Shown here one piece after another: positions 1,950 to 50,500 of a stretch of DNA of 64,000 nt. This stretch comes from Dehalococcoidia bacterium (lineage in GTDB: Bacteria; Chloroflexota; Dehalococcoidia; Bin125): NCBI GenBank assembly GCA_965262235.1, contig OZ253504.1, positions 3,361,684-3,425,683 of the forward strand, written 5' to 3'. Below the pieces are notes generated by a model that was not told where the DNA came from, did no database searches, and worked only from the letters and a program-made list of their open reading frames with translations. Position numbers and translations under genes: made by a program. Every line of letters starts with the position of its first letter. The first letter of the stretch is position 1.

Positions 1950-2420
1950 CCCCTCTCCCCCCGCTCTGCGGGGGGAGATGTCACGGAGTGACAGAAGGGG
2001 GCTCCCTTCCCCGCGCGGGCGCCAGCGTACCGCGCGGGGGTGGGGTGGGTGCAGGGAGCGCGGCGTGAGTGGTGGGGGGCCGTCGCTGATCTGGGGCGCT
2101 GACGGGAAGCTTGAGGTCGCATGGATTCCTGCCTGCGCAGGAATGACGGAAAGGAGGGGCAGGAACGACGGGGAGGGCAAGACCGAGGGGTGGGGTGGGT
2201 GAAGGGAACGTGGCGCGAGGGGTGGGGGGCCGTCGCTGATCTGGGGGGCTAACGGAAAGCTTGTGGTCGCATGGATTCCTGCCTGCGCAGGAATGACGGA
2301 AAGGAGGGGCAGGAATGACGGAAAGGAGGGGCAGGAATGACGGAAGAGAGGGGCGGGAACGAGGGGAGGGCAAGACCGAGGGGTGGGGCGCTGCTGGTGT
2401 GACGGAGGAGCGGCGTGTGG
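1950..2420. repeat. Cluster of palindromic repeat elements with two tandem copies of a ~170-bp unit.
   Basis: CTCTCCCCCCGCTCTGCGGGGGGAGATGTCACGGAGTGACAGA at 1953. The unit ...CGCATGGATTCCTGCCTGCGCAGGAATGACGGAAAGGAGGGGCAGGAA... repeats at ~2041-2210 and ~2211-2395. The same modules recur at 15.8-17.3 kb, 22.0-22.4 kb, 35.7 kb, 39.1 kb and 50.2-50.5 kb. Confidence 0.75.
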
Positions 2421-2432
2421 GGTGGGCTTAGG

Positions 2433-3332
2433 TCAGTCTGCGGGAGGGGCGGGGGTTTCGGGGAGGTTGGGGTCGTCGCGGAGGGCGCGGAGGATCTCGA
2501 GGTCGGCCTGGCCGGGGCCGTCGCTCTCGTAGCCGGGGACTTCGAGCAGCCAGACAGCCTTGCGCAGCAGGCGATTGCGGACCATACGGCGGAAGGCGCG
2601 CATGCCGATGTGGCCCTGGCCGATGTTTTCGTGGCGGTCGCGGCCGGAGCCGAGCTGGGTCTTGCTGTCGTTGGCGTGGACGGCCACGAGCTGGTCGTCG
2701 CTGAACTCGGCGCGGTAGGCCTGAACCACCTCACGCAGGCCGCGCTCGGTGGCGACGTCGTAGCCGGCCGCGTGCAGGTGGCAGGTGTCGAGGCAGAGGC
2801 GCACGCGGTCGTTGTGGACGCCATCGATCATCGCGGACAGCTCCGCGAACGTGGAGCCGACGCTGCGGCCCGCGCCGGCGTTGTTTTCGAGGCAGAGCCA
2901 GACATCGTCGGGCGAGTCGTCGAGCGCGGATTGCATGCCGGCCACCATCCGGGGCAGCTGGGTCTCGAAGCCTGCGCCCATGTGCGAACCGACGTGGACG
3001 ATCACGCCTTCGACGCCGAGCTGGGAGCCGAGGCGCAGCTCGGCCGTCAGCGCCGCGATGCTCTTGGCGAGCAGCTCGTCGTCGGGGCTGGCGAGGTTGA
3101 TCAGGTAGATCGCGTGGATGAAGGTGGGGCCGAGCTTGACCGCCTTCGCGTCGGCGCGGAAGCGGCGGATGTCGTCGCCGTGGTCCTTGCGTCGCCACTG
3201 CTGAGGGGCGGCGCCGAAGATCTGGATCGCCTCGGCGCCGATCTTCTCGGCGCGTTCGACGGCCTTGTAGATGCCGCCGGAGGCGGAGACGTGCGCGCCG
3301 ACGGCGGGGTTGCGGCCGCGTCGCCTAGGCAC
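2433..3332 (-). CDS. nfo: Endonuclease IV (deoxyribonuclease IV, AP endonuclease).
   Basis: GAHVSASGG...HxxYLINLAS...HLHAAGYD signature of the Nfo/xylose-isomerase-like TIM barrel, 299 aa. Confidence 0.85.
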   Translation of the reverse strand: MPRRRGRNPAVGAHVSASGGIYKAVERAEKIGAEAIQIFGAAPQQWRRKDHGDDIRRFRADAKAVKLGPTFIHAIYLINLASPDDELLAKSIAALTAELRLGSQLGVEGVIVHVGSHMGAGFETQLPRMVAGMQSALDDSPDDVWLCLENNAGAGRSVGSTFAELSAMIDGVHNDRVRLCLDTCHLHAAGYDVATERGLREVVQAYRAEFSDDQLVAVHANDSKTQLGSGRDRHENIGQGHIGMRAFRRMVRNRLLRKAVWLLEVPGYESDGPGQADLEILRALRDDPNLPETPAPPAD

Positions 3333-3627
3333 CGGCGAGCCTGCTCAGTTTGGTGAGCCAGCGGCGGCCGCGGGGCAGGAAGACGGTCGATTGGACGGCG
3401 GCGACCCAATCGGCATCGCTGCCGGCGGTCAGCCGGACGCGGGCTTCGCCGGTTTCGAGCGAGCAGTCGGCGGACTCGACGCCGGGGAGCTCGGCCAGGG
3501 CCGACTGGACACGGCCCGCGCAGATGCCGCAGACGAGGCCGTCCACGGCGAGGTGGACTTCGGAATCGGAGGCGCTGAGGATGCGCGCCTCGGGGGTGAT
3601 CAGCAGGTTCTTCGGTCGCAGTTTCAC
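3325..3627 (-). CDS. Heavy-metal-associated (HMA) domain protein, a copper-chaperone-like protein.
   Basis: LAVDGLVCGICAGRVQSALAELPGV matches the HMA MxCxxC metal-binding loop (here C-G-I-C) within a ferredoxin-like fold. The exact start is uncertain. It overlaps the nfo start by 8 bp. Confidence 0.45.
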   Translation of the reverse strand: MKLRPKNLLITPEARILSASDSEVHLAVDGLVCGICAGRVQSALAELPGVESADCSLETGEARVRLTAGSDADWVAAVQSTVFLPRGRRWLTKLSRLAGA

Positions 3628-3652: not shown

Positions 3653-5113
3653 TCATGCGCCGGTCGGCTGCGCCGGCCAGCCGAGCCAGTCGAGGTAGCG
3701 GCGGACCGCGGTCGCGCAGGATTCGATCGACTGGTAGCAGGCGACGCCGGCCTCGTTGAGGGAGCGCTGGAGCTTGATGCCTTTCTCGAAGCCCTCGACG
3801 CTGTTGGGCTCGCGGATCACCACGGCGATCGGGCGGCTGAGCTTGGGGGCGAGCTTGCCGATCCGGTCCGCGAACTGCTCTTCGAAGCCGTCGCGGTCGC
3901 GCCGGCTGTTTCCGCGGAAAGCCATATCCATCCCCGTGTGGACCATCATCCAGTCGATCGATTCGTCTTCGGCGACGGCGGTCAGCGCGGCCTCGACGCC
4001 TTCGCCCTCGAACATGAAGCCGGCGTCGAGCGGGTTGCGCACCGAGGTGCCGGCGATCGGAGTGAATTTGCTGAGCCGCTGCTGGGTGGTCTTGCTGAAC
4101 CAGGGGACGGGGATGCCGGCGCGGTCGCAGATGTCGGCGGCGAGCACCGAAACGCCGCCGCCGCCGCCGAGCACCGCAGCGCGCGGGCCCGCGAGGTGGG
4201 GCATTCGCTGGACGGTGACCGCGAGGTCGAGCAGCTCGTCGACGCTCTCGGCGCGCATGAAGCCGGCCTGACGCTGGACGGCGTTCCAGATCTGGGCGGA
4301 GCCGGCGAGCGAGCCGGTGTGTGAGCTGGCGGCTCGCGAGCCGGCCTCGGTCAGGCCGCCCTTGAGCACTGCGAGTGGTCGCTTGCCGGCCATCGAGCGG
4401 GCGACGCGCAGGAAGCGAGGGCCGTCGCGGATGCCCTCGATGTAGGCGAGCACGATGTCGGTGTCGGGATCGTTGGCGAGGAACTGGAGATAGTCGGCCT
4501 CGTTGAGGTCGGAGGCGTTGCCGAACGAGGCGACGTTGGAGAACTCAATCCCGCGGCGCGGGCCGTGGCCGAGCGCCTCGCTGGCGTTCATCCCGCTCTG
4601 CGAGAGCATGGCGACGCGGCCGGGGGTGGGGGAGGCGGAGTCGCTGAAGGAGACGCCGCCGCGGGTCGAGTGGATGCCCAGGCAGTTGGGGCCGATCAGG
4701 CGGATGCCGCCAGCGTCGAGGCGCTTGAGCACCTCGCGCTCGAGCTCGGTGCGTTGCTCGTCGCCGGTTTCAGAGAAGCCGGCCGTGAAGAGGTGGATGA
4801 CGCGCACGCCCTTGGCTACGCAGTCATCCACGAGGCTCAGGATCGCCGAGGCGGGCACGGAGGAGATGACGTAGTCAACCTCGCCCGGCGCCTCAACCAG
4901 CGAGCGGTAGATCGGCGTGCCGTCCTGCAGCTTGCCGCCCTTCGGGTTGATGCAGTAGACGTGTTCGAGCCGGTCGAGGTTGCGGATGCCGCGCAGGAAG
5001 GACTGTCCGCCGCCCCAGCCGACGTTGGAGGCTGAGACGCCGGCGATAGCCACCGAGCGCGGCGCGAAGGCGACGCCGAGGGCGTCCTGTCCGTCGCGTT
5101 CACGGGCGGTCAT
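3653..5113 (-). CDS. CoA-binding-domain protein of the NDP-forming acyl-CoA synthetase type (acetyl-CoA synthetase, ADP-forming alpha-domain family).
   Basis: MTARERDGQDALGVAFAPRSVAIAGVSAS...GPNCLGI...SQSG... has the CoA-binding and succinyl-CoA-synthetase-like flavodoxin domains. The start is taken at the ATG giving MTAR (5113); the ORF extends further upstream without homology. Confidence 0.7.
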   Translation of the reverse strand: MTARERDGQDALGVAFAPRSVAIAGVSASNVGWGGGQSFLRGIRNLDRLEHVYCINPKGGKLQDGTPIYRSLVEAPGEVDYVISSVPASAILSLVDDCVAKGVRVIHLFTAGFSETGDEQRTELEREVLKRLDAGGIRLIGPNCLGIHSTRGGVSFSDSASPTPGRVAMLSQSGMNASEALGHGPRRGIEFSNVASFGNASDLNEADYLQFLANDPDTDIVLAYIEGIRDGPRFLRVARSMAGKRPLAVLKGGLTEAGSRAASSHTGSLAGSAQIWNAVQRQAGFMRAESVDELLDLAVTVQRMPHLAGPRAAVLGGGGGVSVLAADICDRAGIPVPWFSKTTQQRLSKFTPIAGTSVRNPLDAGFMFEGEGVEAALTAVAEDESIDWMMVHTGMDMAFRGNSRRDRDGFEEQFADRIGKLAPKLSRPIAVVIREPNSVEGFEKGIKLQRSLNEAGVACYQSIESCATAVRRYLDWLGWPAQPTGA

Positions 5114-5214: not shown

Positions 5215-6606
5215 TCAGAGGGGTGGAGGCCGCCAGCCGCCGAGCGCGGACTCGAGCAGGGCGGCGAGGGCGAGGCAGATGTCCTCGCGCCACGGTGCGG
5301 CGACGATCTGTAGGCCGATCGGGAGTCCCTCGTCCGACGTGCCGCAGCGCACCACGACGGCCGGCCAGCCGGCGATGTTGTAGGGGCTGGTGAACGACCC
5401 GCTGCGGCTGGCTGGCTCGGGATATGCGCCTGGCGCCGTCGCTGGCGCGGCGTTGACCGGGGCGATGATCGCGTCGTAGTCGGCGATGAACTTCAACATG
5501 TCGGCGCGGAAGCGGTCCTGGGCTTCGAGGGCGGCCGTAAAGTCGGCGACCGGAACGGGGCTGGGGTCGGCGAACTCGCGGGCGATCTGGTGCGACGGGT
5601 GTTCCGTGCCGACGCGCTCGAGCAGACGCTGCATCCAGACGCCACCATCGCCGCGGTCGACGCGTTTCCAGAGATCGACGCTACGTGCGAGCGGCTCGGG
5701 CGTACGTTGCTCGATTGAAGCGACCAGGTCTCGGAGCGCGGCCACGGCCGCGCTGATGGCGCGGCGGGTAGCGTCGCTCGGCGTGGCGTGAAGTTCGATG
5801 TCGCAGTACCAGGCGAGGCGTAGTCGCCGGACGTCGACCGCGGCGGGATCGCCGAGCGGCACCGGGTGAATATCGGGATCGATGCCGTCTGGACCACTGA
5901 TGATTGGGAGGGTGAGCGCGAGGTCTTCGACGTGGCGAGCGATTGGGCCCAGCACGGTCCAGCCGCCGATCGCACCGAGTCCCCAGGAGACGATGTGGCC
6001 GCTGCGCGGCACGCGGCCGGCGGTCGGCTTGAGACCGGCAACGCCGCAGAAGTGCGCCGGGCCGCGGATGCTGCCGCCTGTATCGCTGCCGATGTCCAGT
6101 GGCGAGCCGCAGGCGGCGACGATCGCGGCCGAGCCGCCGCTGGAGCTGCCCGGGCTGCGCGTGAGGTCATACGGATTGTGCGTGGGACCGAACAGGTCGT
6201 TGTCGATCTGCGCAGCCAGCGTGCACTCGGGCGTGTTGGTCTTGCCGATCACGATCGCGCCGGCGTCGCGCAGCCGGGCGACGACGGTCGAATCGCGCGA
6301 GGGCACGTGATCGCGGCGACCGACAGTGCCGCCGGTCGTGCGGAGTCCCGCGGTGTCATGCGAGTCTTTGAGTGTGATCGGCACGCCGTGCAGTGCGCCG
6401 AGCGTCGCGCCGCGCGCTACGGCTCGGTCGGCGGCCGCAGCCTCTGCGAACGCGCGGTCGTCGCATCGGGTAACGACGGCGTTGAGCTCGCCGTTGACCT
6501 GATCGATGCGCTCGAGATGCGCCTGGACCAGCTCGACTGCTGAGACCTCTCGCGCGCGGACGAGCTGCGCCATTGCCGCGGCGGACGAGTGCAGCAGCTC
6601 ACCCAT
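5215..6606 (-). CDS. Amidase (amidase-signature family), paralog 1.
   Basis: GKTNTPECTLAAQ...GGSSGGSAAIVAA...GSDTGGSIRGPA is the AS-family Ser-cisSer-Lys signature, 463 aa. Confidence 0.85.
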   Translation of the reverse strand: MGELLHSSAAAMAQLVRAREVSAVELVQAHLERIDQVNGELNAVVTRCDDRAFAEAAAADRAVARGATLGALHGVPITLKDSHDTAGLRTTGGTVGRRDHVPSRDSTVVARLRDAGAIVIGKTNTPECTLAAQIDNDLFGPTHNPYDLTRSPGSSSGGSAAIVAACGSPLDIGSDTGGSIRGPAHFCGVAGLKPTAGRVPRSGHIVSWGLGAIGGWTVLGPIARHVEDLALTLPIISGPDGIDPDIHPVPLGDPAAVDVRRLRLAWYCDIELHATPSDATRRAISAAVAALRDLVASIEQRTPEPLARSVDLWKRVDRGDGGVWMQRLLERVGTEHPSHQIAREFADPSPVPVADFTAALEAQDRFRADMLKFIADYDAIIAPVNAAPATAPGAYPEPASRSGSFTSPYNIAGWPAVVVRCGTSDEGLPIGLQIVAAPWREDICLALAALLESALGGWRPPPL

Positions 6607-6609
6607 GGA

Positions 6610-8001
6610 TCACAGCGGGGGGCGCTGCCAGCCGCCGAGGGCGGATTCGAGGGCGGCGGCGAGGGCGAGGCAGATGTCCTCGCGCCACGGCTTGGCGAGG
6701 ATCTGGACGCCGATTGGCAGGCCCTCGGCCGAGGTTCCGCAGCGCACCACCGCGCCGGGCCAGCCGGTGATGTTGTACGGGCCGGTGTAGAACATGGTGC
6801 GATTGTCGCCCTCGTAGGTCGCGCCGTGGGTGGGCGCGGGCTGCGAGGCGACGGGCGCGACGACGGCGTCGTAGTCCTGGACCCAGCCGAGCATCTCGCT
6901 GCGGAACTGGTCCTGGGCTTCGAGCGCCGCGGTGTACTCGGCGGTGGTAGTGGGCTCGGTTCGCGCGAAGCCCTTCTCGATGAAGGGGGAGACCTCGGTG
7001 GTGCCCCACTTCTCCAGCATGCGGTCGACCCAGGCGCGGCCGTCGCCCCCGCCGACGCGGGCCCAGAGGTCGACGTACTTGCTGATTGGGGGCGGCGCGT
7101 CCTGCTCAACCGACTGCACGAGCTCGGCGAGGGCGGTGACGGCCGCGGAGAGCGTGGCCTGGGTGTCGTCGGTGGCGCGCTGGTAGCCGTCGACGTCGGA
7201 GTAGTAGGCGATGCGCAGACCGCTGATGTCGACATCGGCGGGGTCGCCGAGCGGCACCGGGAAGATTGCAGGGTCGACACCGTCGGGGCCGGAGATGATC
7301 GGCAGGGCGAGGACGAGGTCCTCGACGTAGCGGGCCATCGGACCGATCGTGGTCCAGGCGTCGAGCGCGCCCATGCCCCAGGGGACGATGTGCCCGGTGC
7401 GGGGGACACGGCCGGCGGTCGGCTTGATGCCGGCGATGCCGCTGAAGTGGGAGGGCAGGCGGATGCTGCCGCCGGTGTCGCTGCCCATGTCGAGCGGGGA
7501 GCCGCCGGCGCAGATGATCGCGCCCGCGCCGCCGCTCGAGCCGCCGGGGGTGCGGGTGAGGTCGAACGGGTTGCGCGTCTGGCCGTAGACGAGGTTGTCG
7601 GTCTCGCCGGAGAGGGTCAGCTCGGGGGTGTTGGTCTTGCCCATCAGGATCGCGCCGGCGCCGCGCAGGCGGGCTGTCACGGTCGAGTCGGCCTCGGGCA
7701 CGAAATCTTTGCGGCCGAGCGTGCCGCCGGTGCTGATGACGCCGGCGGTGTCGTGCGAGTCCTTGAGCGTGATCGGGACGCCGTGGAGCGGGCCGAGCTC
7801 GTCGCCGCGGGCGATCGCGGCGTCGGCGGCTGCGGCCTCTTCGCGGGCGCGCTCGGCGCAGAGTTGGACGACTGCATTGAGGTCGCCGTTGACCTCGTCA
7901 ATGCGGGCCAGATGGGCTTCGAGCACCTCGGAGGAGGAGACCTCCCCGGCGCGGATCGCATCCGCGATGGTGACAAGCGAGGAATAGGTGAGGTCGTCCA
8001 T
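6610..8001 (-). CDS. Amidase (amidase-signature family), paralog 2.
   Basis: Same AS signature (GKTNTPELTLSGE...GGSSGGAGAIICAG...GSDTGGSIRLPS). It is 463 aa, in tandem and in the same frame as paralog 1, separated by 3 nt. Confidence 0.85.
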   Translation of the reverse strand: MDDLTYSSLVTIADAIRAGEVSSSEVLEAHLARIDEVNGDLNAVVQLCAERAREEAAAADAAIARGDELGPLHGVPITLKDSHDTAGVISTGGTLGRKDFVPEADSTVTARLRGAGAILMGKTNTPELTLSGETDNLVYGQTRNPFDLTRTPGGSSGGAGAIICAGGSPLDMGSDTGGSIRLPSHFSGIAGIKPTAGRVPRTGHIVPWGMGALDAWTTIGPMARYVEDLVLALPIISGPDGVDPAIFPVPLGDPADVDISGLRIAYYSDVDGYQRATDDTQATLSAAVTALAELVQSVEQDAPPPISKYVDLWARVGGGDGRAWVDRMLEKWGTTEVSPFIEKGFARTEPTTTAEYTAALEAQDQFRSEMLGWVQDYDAVVAPVASQPAPTHGATYEGDNRTMFYTGPYNITGWPGAVVRCGTSAEGLPIGVQILAKPWREDICLALAAALESALGGWQRPPL

Positions 8002-15753: not shown

Positions 15754-15779
15754 CAAGCTGCTGAAAGAGTCCGCCGGTT

Positions 15780-16960
15780 GGCGCTCGCCTCTCTTCCCCT
15801 GCCTTGCGGGGGGAGATGCCGAAGGCAGAGGGGGGTCAATCGGTTGGGGAGCGGGGGGGGGCTTGTATGTTCGCGCTGGCTCGGGAGCCGTTGGTGGCTG
15901 AGTCGAACCGGGGTGCGGCAGACCGATTCCCCCCTTCATTCTTGCGCCGCCTCCGTCATTCTTGCGCCGCCTCCGTCATTCCTGCGCCGCCTCCGTCATT
16001 CCTGCGCCGCCTCCGTCATTCTTGCGCCGCCTCCGTCATTCCTGCGCCGCCTCCGTCATTCTTGCGCCGCCTCCGTCATTCCTGCGCAGGCAGGAATCCA
16101 TGCGGTCTGTGGGGGTCAAGGGCACTCTCAAAGTTCGACGGCGCCCGATCACCCACGGCGCGCTGGGAGCTGTGGTGGGCCGTCGGGCGGATTGAGGCTC
16201 GTCGCACGGTTGGACGGTCGCATGGATTCCTGCCTCCGCAGGAATGACGGAAGGGGCGGATGTGACGGACAGGGCGGGTGTGACGGAAGGAGGCGAGTGT
16301 GAGGTACAGGGCGGGTGTGAAGGAAGGAGCGGGTGCGGCAGACCGGTGCCCCCTCTCCGTCATTCCTGCGCCGCCTCCGTCATTCCTGCGCAGGCAGGAA
16401 TCCATGCGGTCTGTGGGGGTCAAGGGCACTCCCAATGTTCGACGGCGTCCGATCACGCGCGGCGCGCTGGGAGCTGTGGTGGGCCGTCGGGCGGATTGAG
16501 GCTCGTCGCACGGTTGGGCGGTCGCATGGATTCCTGCCTGCGCAGGAATGACGGAAGGGGCAGGGGTGACGGACAGGGCGGGTGTGACTGAAGGGGCGGG
16601 TGTGACGGACAGGGCGGGTGTGAAGGAAGGAGCGGGCGCGGCAGACCGGTGCCCCCTCTCCGTCATTCCTGCGCCGCCTCCGTCATTCCTGCGCAGGCAG
16701 GAATCCATGCGGTCTGTGGGGGTCAAGGGCACTCCCAATGTTCGACGACGCCCGATCACGCGCGGCGCGCTGGGAGCTCTGGTGGGCCGTCGGGCGGATC
16801 GAGGCTCGTCGCACGGTTGGGCGGTCGCATGGATTCCTGCCTGCGCAGGAATGACGGAAGGGGCAGGGGTGACGGACAGGGCGGGTGTGACGGAAGGGGC
16901 GGGTGTGACGGACAGGGGCGGGTGTGAGGGACAGGGCGGGTGTGACGGACAGGGCGGGCG
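15780..16960. repeat. Nested tandem-repeat array built from hairpin repeat modules.
   Basis: 7 tandem copies of a 20-bp unit TCATTCYTGCGCCGCCTCCG at 15936-16075. Then 3 copies of a ~305-bp unit starting at 16076, 16380 and 16683. Each unit is bounded by the inverted hairpins TCATTCCTGCGCAGGCAGGAATCCATGCG and CGCATGGATTCCTGCCTGCGCAGGAATGACGGA. The units are separated by short ~20-bp GGGCGGGTGTGACGGACAG repeats. Confidence 0.8.
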
Positions 16961-17250
16961 TGACCAGCTGCTGCGCAGCGTGCCGGGCGTGGGTGAGCAG
17001 CTCTCACTGACGCTGCTGGCCGAGCTGCCGGAGCTGGGCCGGCTGAACCGTCGTCAGGTCGCCGCCCCTGGTCGGCGTGGCGCCCTTCAACCGCGACAGC
17101 GGCAGACGCACGACCTGGGGCGGGCGCGCCCCGCAAGCCCAAGAGGCTGGCCCTTACCGCCTGCATGTGCAAGCTGCTCGTGATCTTCAACGCGATGCTC
17201 AAACACCACACACCCTGGCGCGATTTGAGCCCCGACAGCGCCCACTGAGT
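16958..17250 (+). pseudogene. IS110-family transposase remnant: the C-terminal part only, with frameshifts.
   Basis: LLRSVPGVGEQLSLTLLAELPELGRLNRRQVAA, then ...VGVAPFNRDSGRRTTWGGRAP... in a second frame, then KRLALTACMCKLLVIFNAMLKHHTPW in a third frame. These match the conserved C-terminal block of IS110-family transposases. The 5' portion is replaced by the repeat array. Confidence 0.6.
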
Positions 17251-17345
17251 TGATCCTCAACACAGTTGCTCTGTCACTCCGTGACATCTCCCCCCGCTGC
17301 GCGGGGGGAGAGGAAGACGGGACACGGTGACTCTTCAGCAGCCTG

Positions 17346-22059: not shown

Positions 22060-22400
22060 AACAAGTCGGATCCCCTCTCCCCCCGCTTCGCGGGGGGAGA
22101 TGTCACGGAGTGACAGAGGGGGGCAGCCCCAGTTGGCCAGATACAGCCACGCCGGTGAGTCGGGACCGCAGCCCCCCTCTGCTCCCTGCCTGTGCGGGGG
22201 CAGGCTGCGGCATCTCCCCCTCAGAGACCTGCGCGTAAGTCCCACTGCTCCGACCTTCCCTGCCGATGGCGGTGTCACGAAGTGAAGGTGGGGAGCTTCC
22301 GTTATCTGGTGAGGGCGCGCCCGGAGCCCCCCTCTGCCTGTGGCATCTCCCCCCGCGGAGCGGGGGGAGAGGGGAAATGGAGATTACGCGCAGGTCTCCT
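22060..22400. repeat. Cluster of palindromic repeat elements.
   Basis: GGATCCCCTCTCCCCCCGCTTCGCGGGGGGAGATGTCACGGAGTGACAGAGGGGGGCAGCC ... CATCTCCCCCCGCGGAGCGGGGGGAGAGGGG. Same family as at 1950, 35700, 39150 and 50250. Confidence 0.7.
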
Positions 22401-35659: not shown

Positions 35660-35840
35660 AATCCTCTGAGCGAATCGGACCTCATCTCCCCTCGCTCCCC
35701 GGGCGGAGATGTCACGGCGTGACGGCGGGCCGCGCGCGCCCCGCTCGGGCAGATACCGCCACGCCGGTGAGTCGGGACCGCTGCCCCCCTCTGCCTTCGG
35801 CATCTCCCCCCGCTTTGCGGGGGGAGAGTTATTCCGAGCA
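35660..35840. repeat. Palindromic repeat elements.
   Basis: GAATCCTCTGAGCGAATCGGACC...GGAGATGTCACGGCGTGAC ... CATCTCCCCCCGCTTTGCGGGGGGAGAG. Confidence 0.7.
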
Positions 35841-50229: not shown

Positions 50230-50500
50230 CTGCCGCCGCGCGCAATGCTCAGGATCACTCTCCCCCCGCTCGGCGGGGGGAGATGCCGCAGGCAGAGGGG
50301 GGCTCCCGCGCGTGACGCCGGCTGACCGCGACCCACTCCCCCTCTGCCTTCGGCATCTCCCCCTCAGGGGGCGATATTGGGAGGGGATTGGATCTCGCGG
50401 GCCGCGTTGAGTCGCAGGCGCGGGGAGCCCCCCTCTGTCACTCCGTGACATCTCCCCCCGCTTTGCGGGGGGAGAGTGGATTGCACAGGGCGGCGGAGGG
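50230..50500. repeat. Cluster of palindromic repeat elements.
   Basis: CACTCTCCCCCCGCTCGGCGGGGGGAGATGCCGCAGGCAGAGGGGGGCTCCC ... CTGTCACTCCGTGACATCTCCCCCCGCTTTGCGGGGGGAGAGTGG. Confidence 0.75.

Follow-up and report, generated by a model that had tools for sequence, protein, structure and literature searches.

A CGTC-1 REP-dimer array probably expanded in place inside a decayed IS110-family element of a Dehalococcoidia bacterium

Background

What is the 1.2-kb block of nested tandem repeats that lies between two convergent genes of a Dehalococcoidia bacterium, and how did it form? The block is located in a stretch of 64,000 nucleotides (assembly GCA_965262235.1, contig OZ253504.1, positions 3,361,684 to 3,425,683), which is referred to here as the window and whose positions are counted from its first letter. 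The original prediction for this DNA described an array of hairpin modules and proposed a miniature inverted-repeat transposable element (MITE) amplified in place or, alternatively, a structured RNA or a protein-binding array. We conclude that the array is probably a cluster of CGTC-1 (dRS3-like) repetitive extragenic palindrome (REP) dimers that expanded in place inside a decayed insertion sequence (IS) of the REP-targeting, bridge-RNA-guided IS110 type. The puzzling repeat would then be explained as two known things stacked, familiar intergenic DNA and not a new system. Both components are of known kinds; new are the phylum, the identity of the hairpin across phyla, an IS-derived miniature element whose cargo is a REP dimer, and a strain series that includes the empty site.

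Members of the CGTC-1 family have an unpaired CGTC/TGTC tag (variants TGTC/CCTC); their 8-bp stem starts with AT, encloses a loop of 4 nt and is followed by the tail CCA (Di Nocera, De Gregorio & Rocco 2013, PMC3733652). CGTC REPs are mostly organized as HH dimers, with the tags outward and conserved spacers, and have no dedicated transposase; their published distribution covers five phyla, Chloroflexi not among them (PMC3733652). In Neisseria, CGTC-1 corresponds to dRS3, the hairpin of the arrays known as neisserial intergenic mosaic elements, or NIMEs (PMC3733652; NIMEs PMC1797815). IS110 elements that insert into REPs are also well known (PMC1525189, PMC11208160, PMC12288879, and the ISPpu10 preprint bioRxiv 10.64898/2026.03.19.712850). 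Loci from other genomes and metagenomes are designated below by our own labels (L006, L018 and so on).

Results

A hairpin of the CGTC-1 type

The building block of the array is the hairpin CGTC-ATTCCTGC-GCAG-GCAGGAAT-CCA, composed of a tag, an 8-bp stem, a 4-nt loop and a tail. All eight copies in the window possess the tag, CGTC-ATTCC, and the CCA tail, and the stem ATTCCTGC/GCAGGAAT around the loop GCAG, with AT as its first letters, is free of mismatches in 8/8 of them. By these features the hairpin is assigned to the CGTC-1 tagged REP family, the published definition of which it matches feature for feature. The copies in the 64 kb form two clusters, all intergenic, with dimers of the HH type.

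The 24-mer TCATTCCTGCGCAGGCAGGAATCC was scanned against 185,579 species genomes (596 Gb), where about 0.004 matches are expected by chance, and at least 119 loci were obtained. By record titles, the carriers belong to at least a dozen phylum-level groups with a G+C content of 30 to 70% (Planctomycetota, Bacteroidota, Chloroflexota, Pseudomonadota, Patescibacteria, Nitrospirota, Desulfobacterota, Spirochaetota, Cloacimonadota, Deferribacterota, Bdellovibrionota, Hydrogenedentota and others), with cultured isolates among them, for example Legionella parisiensis and Flagellimonas zhangzhouensis. Among 132 hairpins outside the window, position -1 is G in 98%, position -2 is C or T, position +24 in the tail is A in 95%, and the letters beyond are random; from this abrupt end of conservation, the conserved object is YGTC-ATTCCTGC-GCAG-GCAGGAAT-CCA. 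These results place dRS3-like CGTC REPs and NIME-like clustering in Chloroflexota, and the exact 24-nt hairpin is common to at least a dozen phyla, compared with the five published for CGTC REPs.

Three nested repeats

The tandem array proper occupies 15936-16964 and combines a 20-bp repeat (15936-16087, 7.6 copies, 96% matches), a 303-bp repeat (16051-16940, 2.9 copies, 95% matches) and three blocks of 18-bp mini-repeats (16245-16335, 16549-16636 and 16852-16964), as delimited by Tandem Repeats Finder. In a pattern search of the window, the 29-nt hairpin was found 8 times (0.00 expected), the 20-mer 10 times (0.03 expected) and the 18-mer 10 times (0.17 expected). Every 303-bp unit has inverted arms of 39-40 nt, 93-95% complementary, with 114 nt between them (repeat search), and contains 24 nt of the left end of an IS, one half-REP unit, a dimer and the 18-bp repeats. 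Between units 2 and 3, 286/303 positions agree, and unit 1 has seven half-REP units with a T/C pattern. The seven 20-bp half-hairpin units and the three units of about 305 bp bracketed by inverted hairpins that had been predicted are therefore present. The predicted mini-repeats also exist, with a period of 18 bp instead of about 20 bp, and the proposed extent of 15780-16960 has to be corrected, as 15864-15935 is the left end of the IS.

The array had been predicted not to be of the CRISPR type, and this is borne out: the 20-bp and 18-bp units are arranged head to tail without spacers, and the 303-bp units repeat their "spacers", with only two of these alternating in the array, the 114-nt core and a linker segment of about 110 nt, as one 303-bp unit. 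The sole CRISPR match in Rfam is sub-threshold, arises by chance and lies outside the array. Overlapping open reading frames (ORFs) of 66-227 aa cover the array on both strands; their peptides, for example VIPAQAGIH and MDSCLRRNDG, are REP-derived. A protein-coding reading of them was rejected, in line with the earlier description of these ORFs as spurious.

The decayed IS110-family element around the array

Both sides of the array are formed by IS110-family DNA. Window positions 15864-15933 match an intact IS in its non-coding left end (LE; L120 3344-3413) with 91% identity, 130-200 nt upstream of the L120 start codon, and fragments of the same LE recur in the linkers (16331-16354 = L120 3391-3414, 100%; 16634-16657, 96%). 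On the other side, 16958-17280 shows 80-92% nucleotide identity to L120 4105-4527, the 3' third of the recombinase gene together with the right end (RE). The LE / RE motifs of the IS are TGTATGTTCGCGCTGGCTCGGGAG / CAACACAGTTGCTCT. The transposase remnant matches PF02371 with E=0.002, under the curated cut-off, and retains only the C-terminal third with frameshifts; its intact relatives carry both the DEDD domain (PF01548) and PF02371. With the remnant as protein query, the best 120 matches were all short proteins with PF02371 only, and in the contigs behind them this is the second ORF of intact IS110-family elements with a recombinase annotated in two parts, the first carrying DEDD PF01548 and the second PF02371.

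The composite 15864-17272 is accordingly identified by sequence comparison as an IS110-family element with its interior replaced by REP material. The missing interior amounts to about 690 nt in L120 terms and covers the DEDD domain as well as the remainder of the LE. The original prediction held that the array abuts and truncates an IS110 transposase gene; the truncation is real, but the array replaces the IS interior, is flanked by IS110 DNA on both sides and has an LE piece in each unit. This IS copy lacks a recombinase gene, and none was found elsewhere in the 64 kb.

Beyond this lineage, an IS110 gene lies within 8 kb at 2/119 of the listed REP loci, adjacent at neither, which argues for a lineage-specific REP-IS110 link. 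A 19-nt LE motif gave 15 matches in a metagenome scan, all by chance within unrelated coding sequence. Two further loci, P0024 and P0002, were suspected to be parallel arrays, as they start where the remnant starts, and proved to be frameshifted, otherwise complete IS copies.

Every assembly presents the recombinase of this IS lineage as a pair of ORFs (L120 3541-4495, L121 3508-4471, L123 221-1173, L140-L142 1962-2956, L143 1351-2313), split at about the same place (before ...LRQTLRxSPVWREKDDLL), with frame relations of +1, +2 and 0 among the copies. The split could reflect indel errors of low-coverage long-read assemblies, pseudogenes or a real division.

The REP dimer and its half-REP derivatives

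The basic module of the array is a 180-bp HH REP dimer of two inverted hairpins with the tags outward and a conserved 114-nt spacer. Copies with the same spacer, 88-93% identical, were found at several loci of the Dehalococcoidia metagenome-assembled genome (MAG) OZ244584.1 (L006, L092a, L092b) and at L139, so that the unit is not confined to this locus, and the dimer at L094 is a more distant relative (70-74% identical). The window dimers are 95-98% identical among themselves and 89-94% to the other copies (identity matrix). Free dimers occur at L094, L092c and the target of L120; the L094 copy has a C-rich leader, GAGCCCCCTCC|GTCATTCC. At L139 the same dimer has its own local tandem repeats of about 100 bp and 20-bp half-REP units, and is joined to a transposase 3' remnant of about 130 nt and the RE at a site of the family-2 type described below. 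Searching with translated ORFs of the dimer yielded just 2 partial matches, and L139 was reached through one of them.

Minisatellites of half-REP units (GTCATTCCTGCGCC plus 5-9 nt), situated on the tag side of the REP, are found at L031 ~4900-5100, L066 ~3290-3410 (Pirellulaceae), L076 ~690-820 (Comamonadaceae), L092 7100-7236 and L139 2990-3230. They always have the same hairpin breakpoint, in Pirellulaceae, Comamonadaceae and Dehalococcoidia alike, and arrays of three or more units account for 5/189 REP instances.

A cluster of other architecture, also NIME-like, was noted at L018 (Dehalococcoidia MAG OZ241913.1). It consists of direct head-to-tail arrays of 4 and 6 complete hairpins at 2919-3144 and 6560-6809, with 37-78-bp spacing; the hairpins are of a slightly different type (…GGAACCC), 14 in 8 kb.

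The same site in related strains

Related strains were identified through orthologues of the flanking nitroreductase, which are 95-100% identical as proteins; the flanking gene is 95-98% identical at the nucleotide level, and gene order is kept on both sides. The orthologous intergenic regions measure 252, 252, 282, 295, 325, 418, 475, 849 and 910 bp, versus 1592 bp in the window. In L146 and L149 the site is empty (...GAGCGGGGGAGCCCCCCTCT|GTCACTCCGTGACATCTCCCCCCGCTGCGCGGGGGGAGAGGAAGACGGGACACGGTGACTCTTCAGC), and its right half is identical to window 17273-17339. L147, L148, L150 and L151 contain no IS and instead have a different CGTC-1 HH dimer, CGTCATTCCCGCGAAGGCGGGAATCTA followed by 27 nt and an inverted copy; the hairpin of this dimer, ATTCCCGCGAAGGCGGGAAT, fits the dRS3 consensus ATTCCC-N8-GGGAAT exactly. 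L152 (OZ244584.1) has a miniature in which one dimer stands between LE nt 1-36 and the final ~50 nt of the IS. This intergenic site is a hot spot for different REP types.

The closest strains, L144 and L145 (about 98% nucleotide identity in the flanking gene), have the same outer junctions as the window, with one unit in L144, about 1.5 units in L145 and three in the window, and with a single 20-bp unit in L144 and L145. The length difference 1592-849 = 743 equals 2x303 + 6x20 + 17. The strain series with its empty site identifies the composite as an insertion at a defined target. The higher identity of the window units to each other than to copies elsewhere, combined with the copy-number states of the strains, shows at the level of the assembled DNA that the 303-bp and 20-bp repeats expanded in place, with a copy number polymorphic between close strains. 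Together with the empty-site control, the strain states document the decay of a bridge-RNA IS into a miniature element that carries a REP dimer.

As the related contigs are low-coverage long-read assemblies (9x-21x for the orthologous sites) with evident indel errors, and as an odd G9 run stands in the left flank of the window where the relatives have GGGGGAGCCCCCC, one may ask whether long-read metagenome assembly has inflated the repeat number of a locus that really has a single unit. We consider this very unlikely. The three units differ at specific positions, unlike a collapsed or expanded perfect repeat, and independent assemblies show different but related states; moreover, such an artefact would alter the count of the units and not the identity of the array. 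In the left flank itself, window 15849-15863 reads GAGCGGGGGGGGGCT where all related strains read GAGCGGGGGAGCCCCCCTCT. Either a homopolymer sequencing error or a genuine change destroying the left target half could account for the difference.

The same strains bear on a possible function. As a structured non-coding RNA, a terminator or mRNA-stabiliser block between the convergent genes, or a protein-binding array, the locus would profit from its very stable folds (a 206-nt dimer stretch forms one long hairpin of -73 kcal/mol as DNA, z = -8.5, and z ranges from -6 to -8.5 over both strands), from a position between convergent genes that is typical of REPs (PMC3733652), and from a dimer spacer that is 89-94% conserved between genomes. 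Nevertheless, such a function is scarcely probable. The fold stability is due to the inverted REPs themselves, the L094 spacer is only 70-74% identical, and no Rfam family matches the array region above threshold. A promoter/terminator scan found no promoter-like sites and a single terminator-like site, inside the transposase remnant and no better than chance. Copy number varies from 1 to 3 between strains, and since close strains have the site empty or filled with another REP dimer, the array is dispensable. The structured-RNA or protein-binding part of the original prediction thus found no support.

Target site and putative bridge RNA

The junctions of L120, L123, the miniatures and the window copy read ...C-rich-CT|TGTATGTTCG...IS...ACAGTTGCTCT|GTCAY..., and the junctions ...CT|TGTATG and GTTGCTCT|GTCAC recur in eight copies, with the core CT on both sides, scarless and without terminal inverted repeats. 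The left and right junctions overlap by CTCT, so the target can be written GCCCCC-CT-CTGTCAC with CT as the core. Insertion occurs at a C-rich leader followed by (C/T)GTCAY, a combination common to the tag ends of CGTC REPs and to a compound palindrome that we term family 2, GTCACTCCGTGAC-ATCTCCCCCCGC-NNNN-GCGGGGGGAGA. The right flank of L120 is a CGTC-1 REP (GTCATTCCTGCGCAGGCAGGAATCCA) and that of the other copies is the family-2 palindrome, the preferred target of the element. Unoccupied family-2 palindromes (GTCACTCCGTGAC + ATCTCCCCCCGC-N4-GCGGGGGGAGA, preceded by GCCCCCCTCT) lie at 1952-2001, 22074-22123 (also 22340-22372), 35682-35828, 50258-50285 and 50428-50476, and the unoccupied target reads GCCCCCCTCT|GTCACTCC at 50428 and 22123.

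For the LE of L120 the predicted fold is a stem, GGGGUGCGGCAG / GUCGCCGCACCCC, with an internal loop and a small cap hairpin. In L120 and L123 the 5' side of the loop, GCCCCCU, equals the left target plus core, and the 3' side, GUGACAGAG, is a 9/9 complement of CT-CTGTCAC. In the LE alignment the scaffold stems and a second domain with GAACAGTTGCC, a motif resembling the conserved IS ends, are invariant, and two loop segments are hypervariable. The loop of L143, TGTTCTCCCG, is like its own left flank, ATGTTCCTCCCTT; at least 2/3 guide types resemble their own flanks. These observations suggest that the LE encodes a bridge RNA with a target-binding loop, of which the window copy would keep the 5' half only, and the strand logic of this putative RNA agrees with the published one (PMC11208160).

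On the minus strand, opposite the presumed bridge RNA, sub-threshold Rfam matches to sX15, a small RNA (sRNA) of Xanthomonadaceae (RF02234), lie over the LE at L120 3383-3532 and L123 57-222 (E 0.026 and 0.15).

A miniature element with the dimer as cargo

A miniature of about 265 bp (LE36-dimer-RE50) is present at L152, L006 and L092b with identical internal junctions, ...GCTGGTT|CCGTCATTCC and ...GACAGGGCGCC|AACAGCGCC.... All three copies are bounded by the IS ends, occupy family-2 targets and have unrelated outer flanks; L092a is a fourth copy, without RE. As the miniature occupies 3-4 different target sites in one related genome (OZ244584.1), a non-autonomous IS110 derivative can carry the dimer along as its cargo. 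Deletions at short homologies (CCG; GACAG-GCG) in a composite of the window type can account for both internal junctions. We infer that the miniature moved as a unit with IS110 functions supplied in trans, for which the ssr9 module of ISPpu9 offers a parallel (PMC12288879).

Bounds of this kind also bear on the proposal that the dimer is itself mobile, as an autonomous MITE or REPIN (two inverted REPs as a long-hairpin unit) moved by its own terminal inverted repeats, and repeatedly into itself. Its 33-40-nt inverted termini, its fold as a long hairpin, the several dispersed copies, free ones among them, and the literature precedent of REPINs would all suit such an element. We still regard it as highly improbable. 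The free copy at L094 has no target-site duplication and lies between unrelated flanks (CCAACCA / GGGGGCT), and the copies with matching internal junctions end at IS ends. Units 2 and 3 contain 24 nt of LE and the 18-bp repeats, so that what was copied is a 303-bp chromosomal segment and not the 180-bp dimer. The tag is CGTC and not the GTAG of substrates of the REP-associated tyrosine transposases (RAYTs), and the literature assigns no transposase to CGTC REPs (PMC3733652). Of the MITE-like element amplified in place that had been predicted, the in-place amplification is upheld by the unit identities and the strain copy numbers. A classical MITE was rejected: its supposed terminal inverted repeats are hairpins of the CGTC-1 REP type, found on their own in many phyla, L094 lacks a target-site duplication, and the mobile copies are bounded by IS110 ends.

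Formation of the array

Under the explanation favoured here, the IS would first have inserted at a C-rich leader followed by (C/T)GTCAY. About 690 nt of its interior would then have been exchanged for a REP dimer with flanks, at two short-homology junctions, either through illegitimate recombination or by template switching. On the left, the junction immediately follows the guide-encoding CCCCCC(T): CCCCCCT|TCATTC in the window, CCCCCC|GTCATTC in L144 and CCCCCT|CTCCGTCATTCC in units 2/3. Since the guide must resemble the left target flank, the LE and the REP leaders share 6-8 nt, enough for either process. The right junction lies in GCGTGAC, common to the 18-bp repeat and the recombinase gene, and the junction of the 303-bp duplication lies in GGGTG, common to the 18-bp repeat and the LE. 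Tandem duplication of the 303-bp segment led to three copies, possibly at this homology; the 20-bp half-REP unit may have risen from 1 to 7 copies via unequal exchange or replication slippage at the hairpins, and once two copies exist their number would shift by the same routes. Further internal deletion of the composite would yield the miniature of about 265 bp. No cellular function need be invoked for the array. The locus thereby offers a natural case in which the DNA that encodes a bridge-RNA guide serves as a rearrangement breakpoint, precisely because the guide must resemble the target of its own element.

An alternative is that the IS110 recombinase itself built the array, using REP tag ends with C-rich leaders and the LE guide DNA as full or half targets and stacking dimers and half-REP units by repeated bridge-RNA-guided recombination, including half-match events. 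Recombinase-built arrays were proposed for the Neisseria NIMEs (the dRS3-recombinase hypothesis, PMC1797815), half-match recombination has been reported for IS621 (bioRxiv 10.64898/2026.08.31.748434), and ISPpu10 drives segmental amplification (bioRxiv 10.64898/2026.03.19.712850). At this locus, the LE/array junction immediately follows the left guide and is no more than 1-2 nt away from the predicted core, and each 20-bp and 18-bp unit amounts to a right-half target plus a C-rich leader resembling the left half; the half-REP arrays with one breakpoint in three phyla also speak for this process. We judge it unlikely, however: the GGGTG and GCGTGAC junctions are ordinary microhomologies and not target sites, the REP tag ends in the array read CCGTCA, a mismatch to the guide, and the copy lacks a recombinase gene, none having been found in the window either. 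Among the listed REP loci of other phyla an IS110 gene is as rare as stated above, yet half-REP arrays are found at three of them.

Several observations weigh against our preferred explanation, the in-place expansion of a REP-dimer cluster within a decayed bridge-RNA IS. We found no intermediate in which the transposase is still intact while the LE already contains a dimer, and the entry of the dimer into the IS was not observed. The half-REP breakpoint recurs in unrelated phyla, which plain slippage does not explain. With respect to the bridge RNA, the LE alignment comprises 4 sequences, 3 guide types and 3 compensatory pairs; the whole-LE fold is no better than that of shuffled sequences (z = -1.07), Rfam gives nothing above threshold on the intact IS loci, and the guide-flank match of L140 is looser. 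The left flank of the window reads GGGGGGGGGCT instead of GCCCCCCTCT, through a changed flank or a homopolymer error. Finally, the comparison strains are 3x-21x long-read assemblies with visible indel errors, in which repeat counts and small indels may be off.

A broader and rather doubtful extension is that CGTC REP dimers might generally spread as cargo of bridge-RNA IS110 elements, the miniature being mobilised in trans to REP tag ends and related palindromes. In that case REP and IS would reinforce each other and give rise to NIME-like arrays, and the half-REP minisatellites of Chloroflexota, Planctomycetota and Betaproteobacteria would be footprints of half-match events of the recombinase and not of slippage. 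Mobilisation of the miniature in trans, if true, would provide a testable route for the spread of CGTC REPs, the mobiliser of which has been an open question since 2013.

Features of the locus and a second REP cluster

The coordinates of the features are given in Table 1. The second REP cluster listed there (2054-2400) has a gene end at ~1893 on one side and a minus-strand gene on the other; the unoccupied family-2 target at 1952-2001 is about 120 bp away from it. In addition, a 14-15-nt inverted repeat, GCTGCTGAAAGAGTC / GACTCTTCAGCAGC, at 15757-15771 / 17329-17342 brackets the whole intergenic composite; it is probably fortuitous, as it is not conserved in the empty site of L146.

Table 1. 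Repeat units, IS110-family remnants and flanking palindromes in the window
Feature	Position	Strand	Remarks
Left flank of IS insertion site	15791..15863	.	Variant family-2-type palindrome CTCTTCCCCTGCCTTGCGGGGGGAGATGCCGAAGGCAGAGGGGGG and G/C-rich left target half ending ...GGGGGGGGGCT; inverted match I10; aligns with left flank of empty L146/L149 and occupied L144/L145/L152 sites
IS110-family LE nt 1-72, TGTATGTTCGCG...GGGGTGCGGCAGACCGATTCCCCCCT	15864..15935	+	5' part of putative bridge-RNA gene through left target guide
Seven 20-bp half-REP units TCATTCYTGCGCCGCCTCCG	15936..16075	+	Each a tag-side hairpin arm plus 8-nt C-rich leader
REP dimer 1, HH type, CGTC tags outward	16072..16251	.	Hairpin 16075-16100, 114-nt spacer 16105-16218, inverted hairpin 16219-16251
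18-bp mini-repeats TGACGGAMGGGGCGGGTG, about 4.7 copies	16245..16329	+	Derived from outer flank of right-hand hairpin; Tandem Repeats Finder, pattern search
Unit 2 linker GGGTGCGGCAGACCGGTGCCCCCT	16330..16354	+	Second copy of IS LE nt ~47-71: 5' strand of putative bridge-RNA target-loop stem plus left guide
REP dimer 2	16376..16555	.	One 20-bp half-REP unit before it, 16360-16379
Unit 2 18-bp mini-repeats	16549..16636	+	Tandem Repeats Finder
Unit 3 linker	16633..16657	+	Third copy of IS LE fragment
REP dimer 3	16679..16858	.	One 20-bp half-REP unit before it, 16663-16682
Unit 3 18-bp mini-repeats	16852..16964	+	Joins transposase remnant via GCGTGAC microhomology (junction vs L120, L123)
IS110 transposase 3' remnant	16958..17248	+	C-terminal PF02371 domain from ...DQLLRSVPGVGEQ; frameshifts, ~30-codon internal deletion, stop 17246-17248
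IS RE ...TCAACACAGTTGCT plus core CT	17249..17272	+	Same end in L120, L123, L006, L092b, L139, L144, L145, L152
Family-2 compound palindrome GTCACTCCGTGAC ATCTCCCCCCGC TGCG CGGGGGGAGAGG, right IS target half	17273..17315	.	Identical to empty-site right half, L146/L149
Second cluster of same REP	2054..2400	-	150-bp tandem repeat x2, one hairpin each (2118-2146, 2268-2296), plus three 22-bp half-REP units GGAATGACGGAAAGGAGGGGCA (2290-2355)

Discussion

The array shares most of its features with the CGTC-1 REPs of other bacteria, including dRS3 of Neisseria and RPE-6 of Rickettsia (PMC3733652): the tag, stem, loop and tail, the extragenic location, HH dimers whose spacers are conserved, clusters in which dimers and flanking DNA are repeated in tandem, and no dedicated transposase. 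It differs from them in its occurrence in Chloroflexota, in a 114-nt spacer where 20-100 nt are usual, and in the position of the dimer inside an IS110 remnant. The resemblance to NIMEs (PMC1797815) extends to intergenic arrays of ATTCC-N-GGAAT hairpins with segments of about 50-150 bp between them, to a length that varies between strains, and to the use of the hairpin as integration target by an IS110-family recombinase, that of the Nf prophages. In contrast to NIMEs, the 20-bp inverted repeat of dRS3, ATTCCCNNNNNNNNGGGAAT, does not occur here; the corresponding sequence is ATTCCTGCGCAGGCAGGAAT, with T/A for C/G at positions 6/15, so that the hairpin reads ATTCCT...AGGAAT, a compensated change relative to the ATTCCC-N8-GGGAAT of dRS3. 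The array also represents recent repetition of one 303-bp unit in another phylum and not a mosaic of many RS families.

With the REP-targeting bridge-RNA IS110 elements (IS621, PMC11208160, PMC11208158; ISPpu10, bioRxiv 10.64898/2026.03.19.712850; ISPpu9, PMC12288879), the IS lineage described here has in common a recombinase with DEDD and PF02371 domains, a long non-coding LE whose predicted loop sides match the left and right target halves including the CT core, scarless site-specific insertion beside REP-type hairpins, and non-autonomous modules that are bounded by IS ends and spread alone, comparable to the circles of ssr9 only. Unlike those elements, the window copy is dead, having lost the DEDD domain and part of the putative bridge-RNA gene; compared with ISPpu9, the cargo of the miniature is a REP dimer and not an sRNA gene.

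REPINs with their RAYTs (PMC3116915) and the bacterial interspersed mosaic elements (BIMEs) of E. coli likewise use two inverted REPs as a long-hairpin repeat unit in intergenic clusters, but their tag is GTAG and they have a cognate Y1 transposase, the RAYT, whereas the tag here is CGTC and no association with a RAYT is known or was seen. Classical MITEs such as the Correia elements are similarly small and non-coding, with inverted termini and multiple copies. The dimers of this array differ from them in the absence of a target-site duplication at the hairpin ends, in termini that are generic REPs, and in a mobility that, where seen, proceeds via the ends of an IS110 element.

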